This document shows positions 1,155-5,263 of a stretch of DNA of 5,318 nt, one piece after another. Each line of letters starts with the position of its first letter. The stretch's first letter is position 1. Source of the stretch: Escherichia coli (GTDB taxonomy: Bacteria > Pseudomonadota > Gammaproteobacteria > Enterobacterales > Enterobacteriaceae). A program made the position numbers and the translations under genes. Location of the stretch: the NCBI RefSeq assembly GCF_044324875.1, contig NZ_CP172190.1. One strand, given 5' to 3'. The notes beneath the pieces were generated by a model. That model was not told where the DNA came from. It worked only from the letters and a program-made list of their open reading frames with translations, and did not search any database.

Positions 1155-1232
1155 GCGAGTGGCGGCTCCGCTCGCCGCAGCCCCAGCGACCGAGCGTTAG
1201 CGAGCAAGTGGGCGAGGAAGCGGAAGTGAACC
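1155..1232. other. Putative primosome assembly site (PriA-type ssi/pas-like hairpins) flanking the origin
   Basis: GC-rich island in an otherwise AT-rich origin region. CCGCTCGCCGCAGCCCCAGCGACCGAGCGTTAGCGAGCAAGTGGGCGAGGAAGCGGAAGTGAACC closely parallels, from memory, the pMB1/pBR322 sequence just downstream of the ColE1-type origin (CCGCTCGCCGCAGCCGAACGACCGAGCGCAGCGAGTCAGTGAGCGAGGAAGCGGAAGAGCG), including the GAAGCGG core. A 6-bp stem hairpin CGCTCG...CGAGCG lies at 1169-1196. Confidence 0.35.
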
Positions 1233-1301
1233 GTAGCCAGGTTGAGCACATACGCACGGTTTTTCGACAGGTGATATGCGCCGAACCCGCATGAATACTG
1301 G

Positions 1302-1310
1302 ATTTCCACA
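1302..1310 (+). promoter_or_regulatory. DnaA-box-like 9-mer (ATTTCCACA)
   Basis: 8 of 9 match to the TTWTNCACA DnaA box consensus, in the same orientation as the two other boxes, upstream of the AT-rich repeats. Confidence 0.4.
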
Positions 1311-1397
1311 GGGTTGAGCGGGGTTTTTGCTAAAGTCCGCGAAGTGGATTTTTGTAACATCTTGTTTTTTCTTGTTTTTCCTTTTGCGCACCCCAAG

Positions 1398-1406
1398 TTT
1401 TCCACA
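1398..1406 (+). promoter_or_regulatory. DnaA box (TTTTCCACA)
   Basis: Full match to the relaxed consensus TTWTNCACA, located about 20 bp upstream of the AT-rich 13-mer repeats, the expected place for DnaA-assisted unwinding. Confidence 0.5.
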
Positions 1407-1426
1407 GGCTCGCTGTTAAGTTTTTA

Positions 1427-1465
1427 GATCTTGTTTTTAAGATCTTGTTTTTAATACTTGTTTTA
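1427..1465. repeat. AT-rich DNA unwinding element: three tandem 13-mers (GATCTTGTTTTTA x2, ATACTTGTTTTA) with Dam GATC sites
   Basis: Direct repeats at 1427-1439, 1441-1453 and 1454-1465, resembling the oriC 13-mer consensus GATCTnTTnTTTT. Further copies of CTTGTTTTT lie at 1361-1369 and 1371-1379. The block sits between a DnaA box and the iterons. Confidence 0.6.
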
Positions 1466-1508
1466 GGGTCGAATTTTCTTATGGAATTCAAGAGTTTAGA
1501 AGACTATA

Positions 1509-1591
1509 GGTAATATAATTTAAGGTAAAGGCAATATGATTTAAGGTGGATAGGCAATATGATTTAAGGTAAAGGCAATATGATTTAAGGT
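1509..1591. repeat. Iterons: four direct repeats with ~21-23 bp periodicity (core GGCAATATGATTTAAGGT)
   Basis: Exact 18-mer GGCAATATGATTTAAGGT at 1530-1547, 1553-1570 and 1574-1591, plus a degenerate copy GGTAATATAATTTAAGGT at 1509-1526. The spacing of about two helical turns and the position directly upstream of a Rep_3 gene are the classic iteron arrangement. Confidence 0.85.
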
Positions 1592-1592
1592 A

Positions 1593-1601
1593 ATATCCAC
1601 A
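1593..1601 (+). promoter_or_regulatory. DnaA-box-like 9-mer (ATATCCACA) between iterons and the rep promoter
   Basis: 8 of 9 match to TTATCCACA, immediately after the last iteron. Confidence 0.4.
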
Positions 1602-1617
1602 GGAAAAGGGATATTAA

Positions 1618-1658
1618 AATTAAATCATATTGCCTTTACCTAAAGGAATGTTTATATT
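1618..1658 (+). promoter_or_regulatory. rep promoter (-35 TTGCCT at 1630-1635, 17-bp spacer, -10 TATATT at 1653-1658) overlapped by an inverted iteron (autoregulatory operator)
   Basis: 1622-1640 is the exact reverse complement of the 19-bp iteron core GGTAAAGGCAATATGATTT; extended to about 24 bp there is one mismatch. Inverted-iteron operators over the rep promoter are characteristic of Rep_3 initiators (dimer binding, autorepression). The -35 element lies inside this inverted repeat. A GAGGG Shine-Dalgarno sits at 1678-1682, 7 nt before the ATG at 1690. Confidence 0.6.
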
Positions 1659-1689
1659 TTACTCATTGCCTTAGGTTGAGGGATTTACA

Positions 1690-2391
1690 ATGTCGGATCT
1701 GATTGCCTACAAATCCAATGCACTGGTTGAGGCCAGCTATAAATTGACTCTTCAGGAACAGCGATTCTTGTTACTTTGCATTGGTCGATTGAAGTCGGGT
1801 TCTGATGCAGAATCCACTGAATTGCAAAAGACCATGACTGTTACCGCCGAAGAGTATTTCGACTCATTCCCTGATATGGGGCGGAAAAATGCCGAGGTTC
1901 AGCTACAGGAAGCAATTGATCGTTTGTGGGACAGGTCGATCATCCTTAAGGACGATGAGAAGCGCGAGGAGTTCCGCTGGATCCAGTATCGGGCACAGTA
2001 CGCTAAAGGTGAGGGCAAAGCCCAAATCACTTTTTCAGATGCGGTCATGCCTTATCTGACACAGTTGAAGGGGCAATTTACTAGAGTTGTAATTAAGAAT
2101 ATCTCCAATTTATCAAGAAGTTACAGCATAAGAATATACGAACTTCTCCAGCAATTCCGCAGCACAGGGGAACGTATTATCGCCCTCGATGATTTTCGCT
2201 CAATGCTTGATATAGAGCATAAATATCAAACATATAAGTCTCTGAACCAGCAATTATTAAGACCTTGCGTTGACGAACTGAATCAAAAAAGCGACTTGGC
2301 TGTAACGCTTGAGACGATCAAGAAGGGGCGCACGGTTGTAGCCCTGCATTTTCGCTTCAAGGAAGACAAACAGATCAAGATGACGATCTAA
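1690..2391 (+). CDS. repA: Replication initiator protein, Rep_3 family (iteron-binding RepA/RepE/pi-type)
   Basis: 233-aa ORF with good Shine-Dalgarno and promoter, directly downstream of the iterons. The N-terminus (YKSNALVEASYKLTLQEQRFLLLCIGRL) and the segment YSIRIYELLQQF...LDDFRSMLDIEHKY...YKSLNQQLLRPCVDELNQKSDL...KKGRTVVALHFRF parallel, from memory, pSC101 RepA, F RepE and pPS10 RepA. Length is within the family range (about 230-320 aa). Confidence 0.9.
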   Translation: MSDLIAYKSNALVEASYKLTLQEQRFLLLCIGRLKSGSDAESTELQKTMTVTAEEYFDSFPDMGRKNAEVQLQEAIDRLWDRSIILKDDEKREEFRWIQYRAQYAKGEGKAQITFSDAVMPYLTQLKGQFTRVVIKNISNLSRSYSIRIYELLQQFRSTGERIIALDDFRSMLDIEHKYQTYKSLNQQLLRPCVDELNQKSDLAVTLETIKKGRTVVALHFRFKEDKQIKMTI

Positions 2392-2402
2392 AATCGATTT
2401 TA
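2389..2402. repeat. 14-bp perfect palindrome TAAAATCGATTTTA overlapping the rep stop codon (copy 1)
   Basis: Self-complementary sequence read directly. The 13-mer AAAATCGATTTTA recurs exactly 90 bp downstream. Candidate protein-binding site; function unknown. Confidence 0.5.
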
Positions 2403-2410
2403 AGGCATCT

Positions 2411-2437
2411 AAAACGCCATCTGGTTCGTTTTTTTGG
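2411..2437 (+). terminator. Possible weak intrinsic terminator downstream of rep
   Basis: AAAACGCCATCTGGTTCGTTTTTTT: imperfect A/U-rich stem (AACGCCA / TGG..CGTT) followed by a 7-T tract, 20 bp after the rep stop. Confidence 0.35.
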
Positions 2438-2479
2438 TGTCAGGTATGCGATGGTACTACCAAGCAAATAAATTGCGTC

Positions 2480-2492
2480 AAAATCGATTTTA
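2480..2492. repeat. Second copy of the palindromic 13-mer AAAATCGATTTTA
   Basis: Exact repeat of the palindrome at the rep stop codon. Confidence 0.5.
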
Positions 2493-2774
2493 GAGAGCGG
2501 TATGGCAAACCATGTCGAACATTACTTGTGTTACTTGACGTGAGAGATGCGTTAATGCCGCCAGCAGCAGTCCCCCATCGAAGTGACTCATGTGTGACTA
2601 AAGAGCAAGCCTGAGCAACGTAGGAATCTCCAACCTTCAGGACGGGATGGATATCAAGCACCAGGGCACACTTGAAAACAAAACCTCGCCTCTGGCAAAG
2701 CGCGTCCTTTCACGATGACGTAGAGGTATTTGAATATCTGTAGGAGTTCATCACGCTATTTTAACGCTTAAAAA

Positions 2775-2840
2775 GCGCGTTTCTGATTGTGTAACTAAAC
2801 ACAGGTAGTAATTAGTAGGTGTGGGGGGGCAGAAACGCGC
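2775..2840. repeat. Inverted-repeat pair A: GCGCGTTTCTG (2775-2785) and CAGAAACGCGC (2830-2840), 44-bp spacer
   Basis: Perfect 11-bp inverted repeat read directly. It shares the 10-bp core CGCGTTTCTG with pair B at 3310-3373. The spacer contains a G7 run. Candidate operator pair or hairpin. Confidence 0.5.
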
Positions 2841-3180
2841 AATTAATATTTATCGTGAATTTGATTTTATGTCTAGTATCGAGAAACAGAATATAAAAAG
2901 ATTATCTTTGGAAATATAGAAAAAAAATAAAATAATAAACTAAAAACAATCAAAAAATAATAAATATTACACTACAATATGGCAATAATATATTCATTCA
3001 TATAGTGATATACGCTATGGTTTTCAAAATTTTCCTTGAGCTGAAGAACGGAGTTTTATGGCAAACGAGGTAATCTTGCACAGGAAAAATAGGTTGTATC
3101 TATGTCATGGTTTTGTTATTTTTTTTTGCTCAGTTATTGATGGTCAATATGTAAAATAAATCAGGTACTTCCTTACACTT

Positions 3181-3207
3181 ACCCTCATTCATTGAGGGTT
3201 TTTTTTA
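3181..3207 (+). terminator. Rho-independent terminator (plus strand)
   Basis: ACCCTCA-TTCAT-TGAGGGT: 7-bp GC-containing stem with a 5-nt loop, followed immediately by a run of 8 T. No T tract on the opposite strand, so it is unidirectional. No CDS lies upstream, suggesting it ends a small RNA or a decayed gene transcript. Confidence 0.7.
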
Positions 3208-3218
3208 TCCATATCTAA

Positions 3219-3531
3219 GTTGACATCCTCCATGCCCTGAAGGACGGGGTTTTACAGCACACCGGATAACTATCTCGACATGGATATTGATACACGTTAA
3301 AAATACGTGACGCGTTTCTGGCAGATATCTGAGGTCTATTTCGCCGTGTTAGCCACACTGTCAGAAACGCGTTCAATTTCTCCCGTTGAGCTGATATGCT
3401 CATCACCGCAATCACGGTAGTGTCCGAAGACGAACCGTTAATGCATCTTCCCCCCGATACTGGGCTTTCGGGGGGAATATTTACTCGGTGCGCCGTAAAA
3501 CCCCGTCCTTCAGGGCATGGAGGATGTCAAC
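3219..3531. repeat. 313-bp element bounded by perfect 37-bp terminal inverted repeats (MITE-like element or invertible segment); interior 239 bp
   Basis: 3219-3255 GTTGACATCCTCCATGCCCTGAAGGACGGGGTTTTAC is the exact reverse complement of 3495-3531. The interior contains its own inverted-repeat pair (3310-3373) and a 9-bp G/C stem hairpin (3449-3476). No convincing CDS inside, and no target-site duplication is evident at the boundaries. Confidence 0.6.
3310..3373. repeat. Inverted-repeat pair B: ACGCGTTTCTG (3310-3320) and CAGAAACGCGT (3363-3373), 42-bp spacer
   Basis: Perfect 11-bp inverted repeat (15 of 16 if extended), sharing the CGCGTTTCTG core with pair A. It lies inside the 37-bp-IR element. 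Confidence 0.5.
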
Positions 3532-3610
3532 ACGAATCCCCTATCTTCTTTTCAGTAAGAAACGGTCATTGAAAACTTATATAACACTACTTTTGGTGTG
3601 TATTTTGCGA

Positions 3611-3643
3611 TAAAAATATCCCCTATCCTAATGATAGGGGATA
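3611..3643 (-). terminator. Rho-independent terminator (minus strand)
   Basis: Plus-strand TATCCCCTATC-CTAAT-GATAGGGGATA forms an 11-bp stem (3617-3627 / 3633-3643). On the minus strand the stem is followed by A then UUUUU (plus-strand A-run 3612-3616). It is convergent with the plus-strand terminator at 3181-3207, so the two bracket the IR-bounded element. Confidence 0.55.
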
Positions 3644-3745
3644 CAAACGATGAATTAACAGTTCTTAATTCTCACGTGAAAAGATAGATTTTAACGAAGA
3701 CACAATCAGCAGTCTTATATCGAATGGCTATCGATCCTGAATCCT

Positions 3746-3838
3746 GATGAGTGGGGATGTTTCTGTACTACTAATGAAAAGCTATCCGGCTAGAGACTTT
3801 ACGATACAGAAACACCCCTCTTTCTTTTATCTCATCAG
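3746..3838. repeat. Long imperfect inverted repeat / hairpin (CTGATGAG...TGTTTCTGTA // TACAGAAACA...CTCATCAG)
   Basis: Outer 8-bp arms CTGATGAG / CTCATCAG and inner 10-bp arms TGTTTCTGTA / TACAGAAACA pair, with an asymmetric internal loop. Orientation and function are unknown. Confidence 0.4.
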
Positions 3839-4376
3839 ATGCCATAGCGCAAAACAATTTCGTTTCACAGATGTGACTTACAATCAAACTGTGCAACATA
3901 AATCACAAAACAAGAAGGTTTTGTTATTATTTTGTTGATGAGTTGTTTTTCGTTGGTTGTTTTTTTGAGGCGTACATACGCGCACAAATGTAAAACTAAA
4001 TTCGTGTTTTCGATAATTTTAAGGCCACAATCATTATGGCATTTTTTATCCTGATCGCCGTCAAAATCTGTCCTTCATGGCAGGATTTACGGCGATCCGG
4101 ATAACACCAAAGATACCTACATGCTCATTCCCCTGTGGTTTCCAGGATATCTTTCCTGTTTTCTGTGCTGTTCATCGCGCCGCCATACCCCGTAACGACT
4201 GCGCTCAGTACCCCTGAAATTTCGCTCGCCGGAAACACGCGGGTGTTGTTTTAACGTGTCCCGGTAGCGGTGTCCAGGCAGGTATGCTTCCGCCAGCGGA
4301 GTTGTTGATCTTGTGTTCTGTTTTTGGCTAGTATTTGTCCGAAAACCTGTCGCTCCGGCGACCAACTAATCTCCCG

Positions 4377-4471
4377 GTGGTCTGAGAGGGAGGCTTACGC
4401 GACCACACTGTCATCTCAGGATGACCAGCCAATGTTCCGGCAGTCTGAGAGGAGCGCCTTCGGGTGACTGC
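4377..4471. other. Two tandem structurally homologous hairpins (candidate structured RNA or protein-binding motif pair)
   Basis: Hairpin 1: stem GTGGTC (4377-4382) / GACCAC (4401-4406). Hairpin 2: stem GCAGTC (4440-4445) / GACTGC (4466-4471). The stem sequences differ but each keeps perfect pairing (compensatory changes). Both loops begin TGAGAGG and contain an inner mini-hairpin (GC-TTAC-GC; GCC-TTCG-GGT, a UUCG tetraloop). Both are preceded by CCGG. A further tetraloop hairpin GTCATC-TCAG-GATGAC lies between them at 4410-4425. Confidence 0.35.
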
Positions 4472-4934
4472 AATATCCCATGAGCCTGGAAGAGGATGCC
4501 TATATGGCGGCAACATCCGTTTAGCCTCTGGAAACGGATGTCACCAGTAGCTGGTGACTGAGGTACGTTATTTTTACCTTCGGATTACCCGTACGGTTTT
4601 GTATGTCATGAAACTTACGAGTTTTCCTCTCGCAGAGTGGCGAAATGCCTTATATATCTGCGTCTTAAAGATTTTCTGTCAGGCTGCATGAGCTTCTTGT
4701 GACTGTGCGCACGGCATAAGGCCATTTGAAATTTGGCTGCTTGCGTGTGTACGTGGAGTCTGAAGCTGTGCGGCGTCACTTGCGTGCGACCGGAGGGAAC
4801 ACCAAGTGACGCCACAACAATCTGCCCTGAAAGCAGCATCACGTAAGGCCTGCCAGAAAATCGTCGCTCGTGACCAGCGTTCTGATGACCGTTTTGTCTT
4901 TCTGACAGCGTCTTTCAGTAACGTGTCCATGCCT

Positions 4935-5037: not shown

Positions 5038-5127
5038 ATGAAAAATCGTTCTGAAGTCGGAAGGCGTCATCGTAAGATGACGGGGAGTAAAAAATCGCCC
5101 TGGTGCACAGGTAGCGAACTCCTGTAA
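5038..5127 (+). CDS. Possible small basic ORF (29 aa, MKNRSEVGRRHRKMTGSKKSPWCTGSELL); leader-peptide-like, speculative
   Basis: ATG at 5038 is preceded by AAGGA (5027-5031) with 6-nt spacing. The ORF is very short with no recognisable family, and lies about 55 bp downstream of the terminator at 4935-4981. Confidence 0.2.
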   Translation: MKNRSEVGRRHRKMTGSKKSPWCTGSELL

Positions 5128-5263
5128 AAACTCAACATGTGCAAGCTCTGCTACATCGACATCAAACGAGCCAGGAAGGCGAGCAACCGCGTTACAGAGC
5201 CGTCCGTGATGACGAAAAACTAACAATATCAACGATCTGGTCTGTTTATCGGAAGGGCATCTC

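Follow-up and report, generated by a model that had tools for sequence, protein, structure and literature searches.

What is a long imperfect hairpin doing in a part of a small plasmid where no gene is annotated, and from what did it arise? The window analysed here, that is, the whole stretch of 5,318 bp (NZ_CP172190.1, assembly GCF_044324875.1), is an entire small Escherichia coli plasmid, and the unannotated 1.7-kb stretch between its replication gene (rep) and a remnant of a mobQ gene carries an imperfect hairpin of about 90 bp, hereafter HC (3744-3838). A preliminary description of this DNA had compared HC with small RNAs, with single-strand promoters or initiation signals of transferred DNA, and with the fold-back structures of toxin-antitoxin mRNAs. 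Our analysis places HC very probably in a family of hairpins with a GTTTCYG stem, to which the inverted repeat of the ColE1 cer site also corresponds, and we lean towards reading it as an orphan or decayed, incomplete cer-type hairpin module. The plasmid holds three intact hairpins of this kind, HC being the most diverged, and a truncated fourth. In a complete cer-type site, such a module has the ArgR box on one side and the XerC/XerD core on the other, and folds as an Rcd-type RNA hairpin.

The hairpin consists of two nested helices. On the plus strand the outer left arm CTGATGAG (3744-3751) pairs with the outer right arm CTCATCAG (3831-3838) in every fold, and the inner left arm GGGG-A-TGTTTCTGTA (3753-3767), with the heptamer GTTTCTG at 3759-3765, faces the inner right arm TACAGAAACACCCC (3805-3818), with CAGAAAC at 3807-3813. 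Both pairings are perfect: TGTTTCTGTA at 3758-3767 matches TACAGAAACA at 3805-3814, and the inner stem continues through GGGG (3753-3756) and CCCC (3815-3818), with A3757 bulged out on the plus strand, while on the minus strand it is predicted to comprise 15 contiguous pairs. The inner arms enclose an apical loop of 37 nucleotides (nt; 3768-3804) containing a small helix, AGCU/GGCU, and the two helices are separated by an asymmetric internal loop with 1 nt (T3752) on one side and 12 nt, the T-rich tract TCTTTCTTTTAT (3819-3830), on the other. The arm pairing and the one-sided insertion had therefore been described correctly and the hairpin is real; of the span first given to it, 3746-3838, the right end stands, and the left end had clipped two bases from the outer arm.

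Structure prediction, which had been proposed as a check, yields HC on each strand. The RNA fold has a free energy of -27.3 kcal/mol on the plus strand (z -3.75) and of -27.6 kcal/mol on the minus strand (z -3.36), none of 200 shuffled sequences being as good in either case, and DNA folding gives the same structure (z -3.3 and -2.4). Perfect 10-bp inverted repeats with loops of 3-60 nt are themselves frequent in this plasmid, 30 overlapping ones, or about 10 separate repeats, being observed where 0.43 are expected per shuffled window. Nevertheless, HC lies far beyond chance, because its 10-bp repeat is extended by the GGGG/CCCC pairs and accompanied by an outer pair of 8 bp.

HC has paralogues in the plasmid. 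All six occurrences of the heptamer GTTTCTG in the window belong to three inverted pairs (HA, HB and HC), whose members are spaced, start to start, by 51, 48 and 48 nt; 0.72 occurrences would be expected per window, and six were reached in none of 200 shuffles. HA and HB came to notice through a list of the 10-mer inverted repeats of the window. HA (2775-2840, plus strand) has an 11-bp stem, GCGCGTTTCTG ... CAGAAACGCGC, around a 44-nt loop, and scores 50.8 bits with the covariance model R1 described below, of which it is a training member. HB (3310-3372, with the family orientation on the minus strand) has the arms ACGCGTTTCTGGCAG / CTGTCAGAAACGCGT, a 15-bp stem, and lies within an element resembling a miniature inverted-repeat transposable element (MITE). 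HA and HB are homologous to each other in inverted orientation, and with the flanks the homology covers about 100 nt. A fourth copy, HD (~4229-4259, plus strand), is truncated: the right arm CCGGAAACACGCG and its flank GTTTTAACGTGT are still there, a mobQ fragment has taken the place of the left arm, and the counterpart of HD is intact in the plasmid pGF43-E (L003, 3928-3996, 37.6 bits). The predicted folds go beyond the shuffled controls for HA on the minus strand, HB on the plus strand and HC on both; the fold of HB on the minus strand is weaker (z -2.6, matched by 3 of 200 shuffles) and that of HA on the plus strand is not beyond the shuffles (z -0.6).

Relatives outside the plasmid were sought by scanning public collections with the HA/HB stem, then with a relaxed pattern and finally with a covariance model. 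Most matches to the HA/HB stem in genome contigs were chance occurrences in GC-rich coding DNA, the useful leads being L072, L076 and L078. The family so defined has the stem GCG(C/T)GTTTC(T/C)GG...CC(A/G)GAAAC(A/G)CGC, and its fuller consensus runs AGCG(C/T)GTTTC(T/C)GG, a loop of ~41-46 nt, CC(A/G)GAAAC(A/G)CGC and, ~10 nt further on, (G)TTTTA(A/G)CG, the place that is taken in HC by its T-rich tract; ColE1 cer has the (G)TTTTA(A/G)CG string there too. Of 5426 complete E. coli genomes, 1253 carry a member of the Qin-like prophage type, located between flxA and ydfW, which is found in some plasmids too; a diverged copy is found in Pseudocitrobacter (L076). Further copies occur in a phage contig (L038), in the small plasmid contigs L072 and L078, in pGF43-E and an IncK2/Z plasmid, twice in an 8.9-kb ColE1-type plasmid (L012), twice in pPCP1 of Yersinia pestis, and in two 2.7-kb plasmids with a Pfam Rep_1 rolling-circle initiator, of which one (L084) has a single copy and the other (L083) has four, at 598-662, 732-808, 851-919 and 1128-1205.

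The model R1 was built from 11 members with HC left out, and the window was searched with filters off. HC was recovered at 16.8 bits, with E ~4e-4 on the plus strand and 0.011 on the minus strand, these E-values being rough owing to a short calibration; the training members HA and HB rank above it, and all other matches have E>1. The R1 consensus is a 12-bp stem, AGCGCGTTTCTGG/CCAGAAACGCGC(T), with a loop of ~41-46 nt and compensatory pairing, and HC is paired at 11 of the 12 stem positions, the bulged A3757 being the exception. Relative to the consensus HC carries compensatory pairs, T-A for C-G, G-C for C-G and T-A for G-C, and its T-A for C-G change is seen also in two other members, L012a and L083d. 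In an alignment of 18 members, pairing is kept in 93% of cells and both sides have changed in 7 of the 12 stem pairs, counts that are biased upward since the alignment was partly built with a structure-aware model; this level of covariation was reached in none of 500 shuffles, and slid controls gave 28-55% paired cells. Arms that failed to co-vary in relatives would have spoken against the hairpin, so that the covariation found favours a real structure.

The connection with cer comes from ColE1 itself. R1 finds a match in ColE1, at 3823-3899 with 18.1 bits, and this is the inverted repeat of the cer site, whose parts follow each other as ARG box TTGCATAGGTATTCATAC, inverted repeat GCGCGATCGCGCAG...CTGCCGTGATCGCGC, then AACGCGTTTTAGC and the core GGTGCGTACAA-TTAAGGGA-TTATGGTAAAT. 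A Qin-like lambdoid prophage member (L060, 3100-3262) is a complete cer-like site with ARG box, hairpin, Rcd-like loop and the core GGTGCGCGTAA-TGAGGCG-TTATGGCAAAT. The cer sites of ColE1 and p2_020022, the Qin-like site and L076 align with a mean column identity of 78%, the identity starting at the ARG box, continuing across the loop (TTTTCGGGTGGTTTGTTGCC.TTTTTACC) and reaching the Xer core, and their cores reach 30.4-30.9 bits in a position weight matrix (PWM) scan. Their arms differ with pairing kept, GATCGC in ColE1 standing against GTTTCTGG/CCAGAAAC in Qin and L076. Because R1 finds cer, the prophage sites align with it and the cores score, the GTTTCYG hairpin can be regarded as the counterpart of the cer inverted repeat. 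In ColE1, cer also encodes Rcd, a transcript of ~70 nt with a single stem-loop and a conserved 15-nt stretch, made from the promoter Pcer, which has a 15-bp spacer (PMC5935869, PMC4393325); Pcer would be TTGCAT-15-TAAAAT, just upstream of the left arm, as this ColE1 sequence fits the 15-bp spacer of PMC5935869.

HC and the Rcd region of ColE1 share the same overall fold. Like the inverted repeat of the ColE1 cer Xer multimer resolution site (mrs), HC is imperfect, with arms of 11-15 bp placed ~55-60 nt apart (55 in HC), a large loop that holds a mini-helix at its apex and, a few nucleotides further on, a T-tract, and with the Qin-type cer-like sites it has the arm core GTTTCTG/CAGAAAC in common. 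In contrast to ColE1 cer, HC has no XerC-spacer-XerD core, recognisable ARG box, Pcer-type promoter or conserved Rcd loop sequence, and it has an additional 8-bp outer helix. HC also resembles the hairpins of the same family that lack a core (p2_020022, p5_FT34/p7_020022, pPCP1, pGF43-E and HA/HB): it has the same stem core, spacing and T-rich 3' flank, there is no adjacent Xer core, and several copies occur per plasmid in either orientation. Even among these, however, the arms of HC are the most diverged (GGGG-A-T for AGCGC), its outer arms are unique, and the exact flank motif TTTTAACGTG is missing.

Each missing part was looked for. A Xer core should have two 11-nt arms, for XerC and XerD, with 6-8 nt between them, and should lie ~13-15 nt 3' of the hairpin. 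In a PWM scan of both strands no such core is seen near 3700-3900 among the top matches of the window, and the same scan finds none in most plasmid members of the family either. An ARG box, which in cer is expected ~12-16 nt 5' of the hairpin, was not found near HC at up to three mismatches by a search that is insensitive, as it also misses the genuine ColE1 box; by eye, the flank of HC agrees with that box at 7 of 18 positions. The promoter scan found nothing upstream of HC, where the best candidate by eye is TTAACG-18-TTATAT, and alignment shows a loop unrelated to that of Rcd, the conserved stretch (GGGTGGTTTGTTGCC..TTTTTACC) being absent. Without Xer core, recognisable ARG box, Pcer-like promoter or Rcd loop, HC cannot act as a recombination site, and it is unlikely to act like Rcd; since it fails the defining tests of both, it is to be filed neither as cer nor as Rcd.

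The two other intact hairpins keep more of a cer-like surrounding, and on this account HC is the most reduced of the three. HB has an ARG-box-like remnant at 3383-3401 that agrees by eye with the Qin-type box at 13 of 19 positions. On inspection HA keeps a Pcer-like arrangement, TTCATC-15-TTAAAA, together with the best Xer-core-like string of the window, GAAACGCGCAA-TTAATAT-TTATCGTGAAT at 2832-2860 (plus strand), which overlaps its right arm. This string scores 16.2 bits, against ~30 for true cores and 8-14 for the top background matches, its XerD-like arm matches at 9 of 11 positions, and it may be a crossover site of weak activity or one no longer in use. HA is also the site of a rearrangement: in a related metagenome contig, L013 (OERO01000469.1, 1-1317), at least 1.3 kb of other DNA replaces window 2814-2909, which comprises the end of the HA loop, its right arm and its flank, so that the breakpoint falls inside HA.

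Nine other copies of HC, in six plasmid records (one a dimer) and two metagenome contigs, were compared, and their stems are identical. The only substitutions near HC among them are at 3733, 3772 and 3839, and the sole one inside the hairpin is 3772 T>C, in the apical loop. Its arms had been called conserved from the start, which holds for these copies and was not knowable from the sequence alone. No copy in another context was found by BLAST of plasmids, E. coli genomes and phages or when metagenomes were scanned for the exact stem; every match belongs to the same backbone and is at least 99% identical, so that no covariation can be read from the orthologues of HC. A viral scan with its inner stem gave two matches, both by chance in coding DNA. 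The region does not appear to encode a protein: the 63-amino-acid (aa) open reading frame (ORF) on the plus strand over HC has no homologue among 5.8 billion proteins, ten local ORFs (at least 20 aa, 3540-4060) match no Pfam or NCBIfam family above noise, and the coding reading was dropped. Rfam gives nothing at HC, nor does it for ColE1 cer or the Qin-like site, from which it follows that Rfam holds no Rcd model.

On the cer reading, HC would be a piece left over from the mosaic assembly of the plasmid by recombination between small plasmids, an origin that fits its surroundings, since these are a patchwork of remnants: the 3' remnant of a tnpB gene, the MITE-like element, the mobQ fragment (4181-4218) and a repeated T-rich motif. 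Any role that remains would be that of a hairpin in a single strand, either as a plus-strand RNA stem followed by UCUUUCUUUUAU, which resembles a terminator, or as a fold in single-stranded plasmid DNA; a residual action as terminator, priming signal or small RNA is possible. Several points weigh against seeing HC as a decayed cer module. Its R1 score is modest (E 0.004 in a ten-times-larger search), its arms equal the consensus only over the 7-nt core and one flanking pair, its 8-bp outer arms have no counterpart elsewhere, and simple local alignment around it detects no homology, the T-rich motif at 3915-3947 being all that is shared. The pair counts of the family, as said, err upward, and the copies of HC, all at least 99% identical, say nothing about selection acting on it. 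Moreover, a perfectly maintained 14-bp stem speaks against pure decay, and as most plasmid members of the family have no core, the family may serve a purpose independent of Xer, and a relic of cer would then be the wrong frame. A functional reading is kept alive by the intact stem of HC with its compensatory changes, and also because core-less copies gather where a Xer accessory element makes little sense. It is possible, though at a much lower probability than the origin preferred here, that the core-less GTTTCYG hairpins (HA, HB and HC) form an unrecognised functional class of hairpin elements in plasmids and prophages that gave cer its Rcd stem, or received it from cer; such a class might act in complementary-strand priming of single-stranded DNA or as a single-strand origin, or else as a Xer-independent anti-multimer element, the last being reminiscent of the palindromes of pHW126/pIGRK plasmids described below.

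The first of these actions, in which HC and the core-less family would be functional single-strand initiation (ssi) signals or single-strand origins, is close to one of the early suggestions and appears unlikely, albeit less so than the other alternatives. Here the hairpin, formed in single-stranded plasmid DNA after conjugative entry or during rolling-circle or lagging-strand replication, would recruit the priming of the complementary strand. The placement of the copies speaks for it: core-less ones cluster in non-coding DNA just downstream of rep in Rep_1 rolling-circle plasmids, with four and no Xer core in L083; in L072, L083 and L084 one copy lies ~30 nt 5' of an origin of transfer (oriT) of the R64 type; and HD and its pGF43-E equivalent precede a partly similar, possibly oriT-like stretch and then a STAXI motif. 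The compensatory change that keeps the pairing points the same way, and the general likeness to ssi signals (the phiX174 primosome site, the G4 primase site and the palindromes of pHW126 and pIGRK, the last two likened by description only) extends to a hairpin of ~70-100 nt in the non-coding DNA of small plasmids, with family members adjoining oriT and rolling-circle rep genes. Palindromes of this sort have been reported as accessory elements of small enterobacterial plasmids (PMC6854812; bioRxiv 10.1101/2022.12.05.519187), which counts as support, and those of pHW126/pIGRK-type plasmids as non-essential, their loss leading to multimerisation (PMC6854812). On the other hand, inspection reveals no sequence similarity to the phiX174 n' site or the G4 complementary-strand origin, R1 matches neither, and the family has a conserved stem sequence that PriA, which recognises structure, would not need. 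The members with a full Xer site show cer to be the established context of the hairpin. The window plasmid, furthermore, has no relaxase gene, and in the MobQ proteins of its relatives, searched for a primase domain with the ssiA/ssiB of RSF1010 in mind, only the relaxase domain was found.

Quite unlikely, too, is that HC works as a plus-strand RNA element, where it would form the body of a small RNA like Rcd or end transcription as an intrinsic terminator. Its architecture resembles the Rcd region of ColE1 (the stem is long, the large loop has a small helix at its apex, and a T-tract comes next), the U-rich tail follows directly on the CCCC of the inner stem on the plus strand only, and the Pcer-like arrangement of HA can be cited in favour, but no promoter precedes HC, the Rcd motif is missing from its loop, a 37-nt loop is atypical of intrinsic terminators (the terminator scan, which allows loops of 3-8 nt, did not call it), and no Rfam family matches, as none does for the Rcd of ColE1. 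Of the early suggestions a small RNA comes nearest to the evidence, in that HC belongs to the family that forms the Rcd hairpin inside cer. It is very improbable that HC is unrelated to the other hairpins, having arisen by chance or independently as an inverted repeat, or representing the terminal repeats of a very small mobile element. The fit of its arms to the family consensus over GTTTCTG and one adjacent pair only, and the absence of any local alignment signal, would agree with that, and its outer arms CTGATGAG/CTCATCAG presumably resemble the termini of IS10-type elements. Yet a 7-mer found solely in three equally spaced inverted pairs, together with the R1 match, makes coincidence unlikely, no second copy in another context was found in plasmids, E. 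coli genomes, phages or metagenomes, and the flanks (TGAATC / ATGCCA) show no target-site duplication; being confined to this backbone and lacking flanking duplication, HC was rejected as a MITE or miniature transposable element. Scarcely credible, and largely refuted, is a role as the fold-back or antisense target of a type I toxin-antitoxin mRNA or as a single-strand promoter of the Frpo type. A 321-nt minus-strand fold pairs its ends around HC and finishes at a strong terminator (3644-3606), and STAXI and EFASI motifs, typical of leading regions, are on the same plasmid. Against this, there is no hydrophobic small ORF, no match to Hok, Ldr, Ibs or another family in Pfam or NCBIfam, and no homologue of the 63-aa ORF; the paired stem (8 + 14-15 bp) has no room for -35 and -10 hexamers at a distance of 17 bp, none being present by scan or inspection, and ~570 nt separate HC from STAXI. 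Other identities were also set aside: an IS200/IS605 end hairpin, prompted by the tnpB remnant, was dropped because the loops seen here are too long for it and no link was found, and an integron attC site, a Tus-Ter site in the loop of HA, a LexA box and a sigma-54 promoter do not fit their consensus on inspection.

On the minus strand, a strong intrinsic terminator (3606-3644) with a 12-bp stem, a 5-nt loop and a U-run lies ~100 nt downstream of HC. HC had been noted as lying upstream of it, which is right as to position, and the link between the two is positional only. In relatives bearing MobQ a G>A substitution at 3640 falls within the stem of this terminator. The ends of the 321-nt minus-strand fold mentioned above meet through pairing of 3902-3912 with 3602-3612. 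The T-rich motif GGTTTTGTTATT(T)nG..GATGAGTT/GCTCAGTT occurs at 3107-3140 and 3915-3947, downstream of HA and HC, and beside family hairpins of other plasmids (L012, 339-370; L083, 1085-1120). The sequence after its second copy in the window, 3963-4045, may be one more cer-like unit, now collapsed, with the Xer-like remnants TTCGATAA ... TTATGGCATTT.

The rest of the plasmid can be described briefly. Its full length is matched at 99.7% identity by pMTY9803_Col2 of E. coli and, apart from a different start point of the record, at 99.8% by pLH50-c-F. A Rep3-type initiator (1690-2391; Pfam Rep3_N and Rep3_C) is accompanied by iterons at 1506-1644, a LysE-family gene is also present, and the remainder is unannotated. 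The backbone (window 1167-4186) is common to six other records and two metagenome contigs, some with a MobQ relaxase. Just past the Rep3 stop codon, the inverted repeat TCTAAAATCGATTTTAAGGC occurs at 2387-2407 and 2474-2494, and it is found again in L084 at ~1640-1665, just past the stop of an unrelated Rep_1 rolling-circle rep gene (p7_020022); its position after two unrelated rep genes suggests that they have a recombination junction or a cis element in common. The segment 2536-2657 (plus strand) has 74-79% identity to the 3' end of tnpB/insQ plus ~40-60 nt downstream, with relatives in plasmids of Xanthomonas, Burkholderia and Methylocalor and in Ralstonia phages, and looks like a stranded right end of an IS605-family element or an omega-RNA-like remnant without a tnpB gene.

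Between HA and HB, the stretch 3058-3213 contains a 33-aa ORF with a GGAG Shine-Dalgarno sequence and then a strong plus-strand terminator (3181-3199). A run of T within this ORF counts 9 T in the window and 14 in pGF43-E, a difference that shifts the frame, and the stretch is accordingly more likely a non-coding RNA than a protein gene. Its block 3092-3210 is 83% identical to one located directly downstream of a family hairpin in 8.9-kb ColE1-type plasmids. The MITE-like unit that contains HB (3219-3531) is bounded by 55-nt terminal inverted repeats that are 91% complementary, and a palindrome at 4046-4105 is related to it. Its arm sequence occurs in ~600 plasmids, mostly conjugative, and in Stx phages, and a lone arm lies 3' of a terminator in L012. 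Towards the end of the window, two Rfam motifs score above their gathering thresholds on the plus strand, STAXI at 4409-4568 (89.1 bits, E 1.5e-18) and EFASI at 5046-5168 (71.7 bits, E 2e-13), both downstream of ~4247-4300, a stretch that in part resembles the sequence flanking an R64-type oriT on its 5' side.

If HC is indeed a remnant of cer, an unannotated hairpin would be explained as a cer/Rcd fossil, which is mostly a matter of bookkeeping, and the seemingly empty 1.7-kb part of the backbone would be a patchwork of recombination leftovers. This would be of use in annotating small Col-type plasmids and in tracing the exchange of segments at Xer- and oriT-linked sites. The part worth following is the wider family of core-less hairpins, more than HC itself: in Qin-like prophages the GTTTCYG hairpins are accompanied by a Xer core, which those of ColE1-type, rolling-circle and pPCP1 plasmids lack, and if the core-less copies are functional, they would represent a new accessory element of small plasmids.

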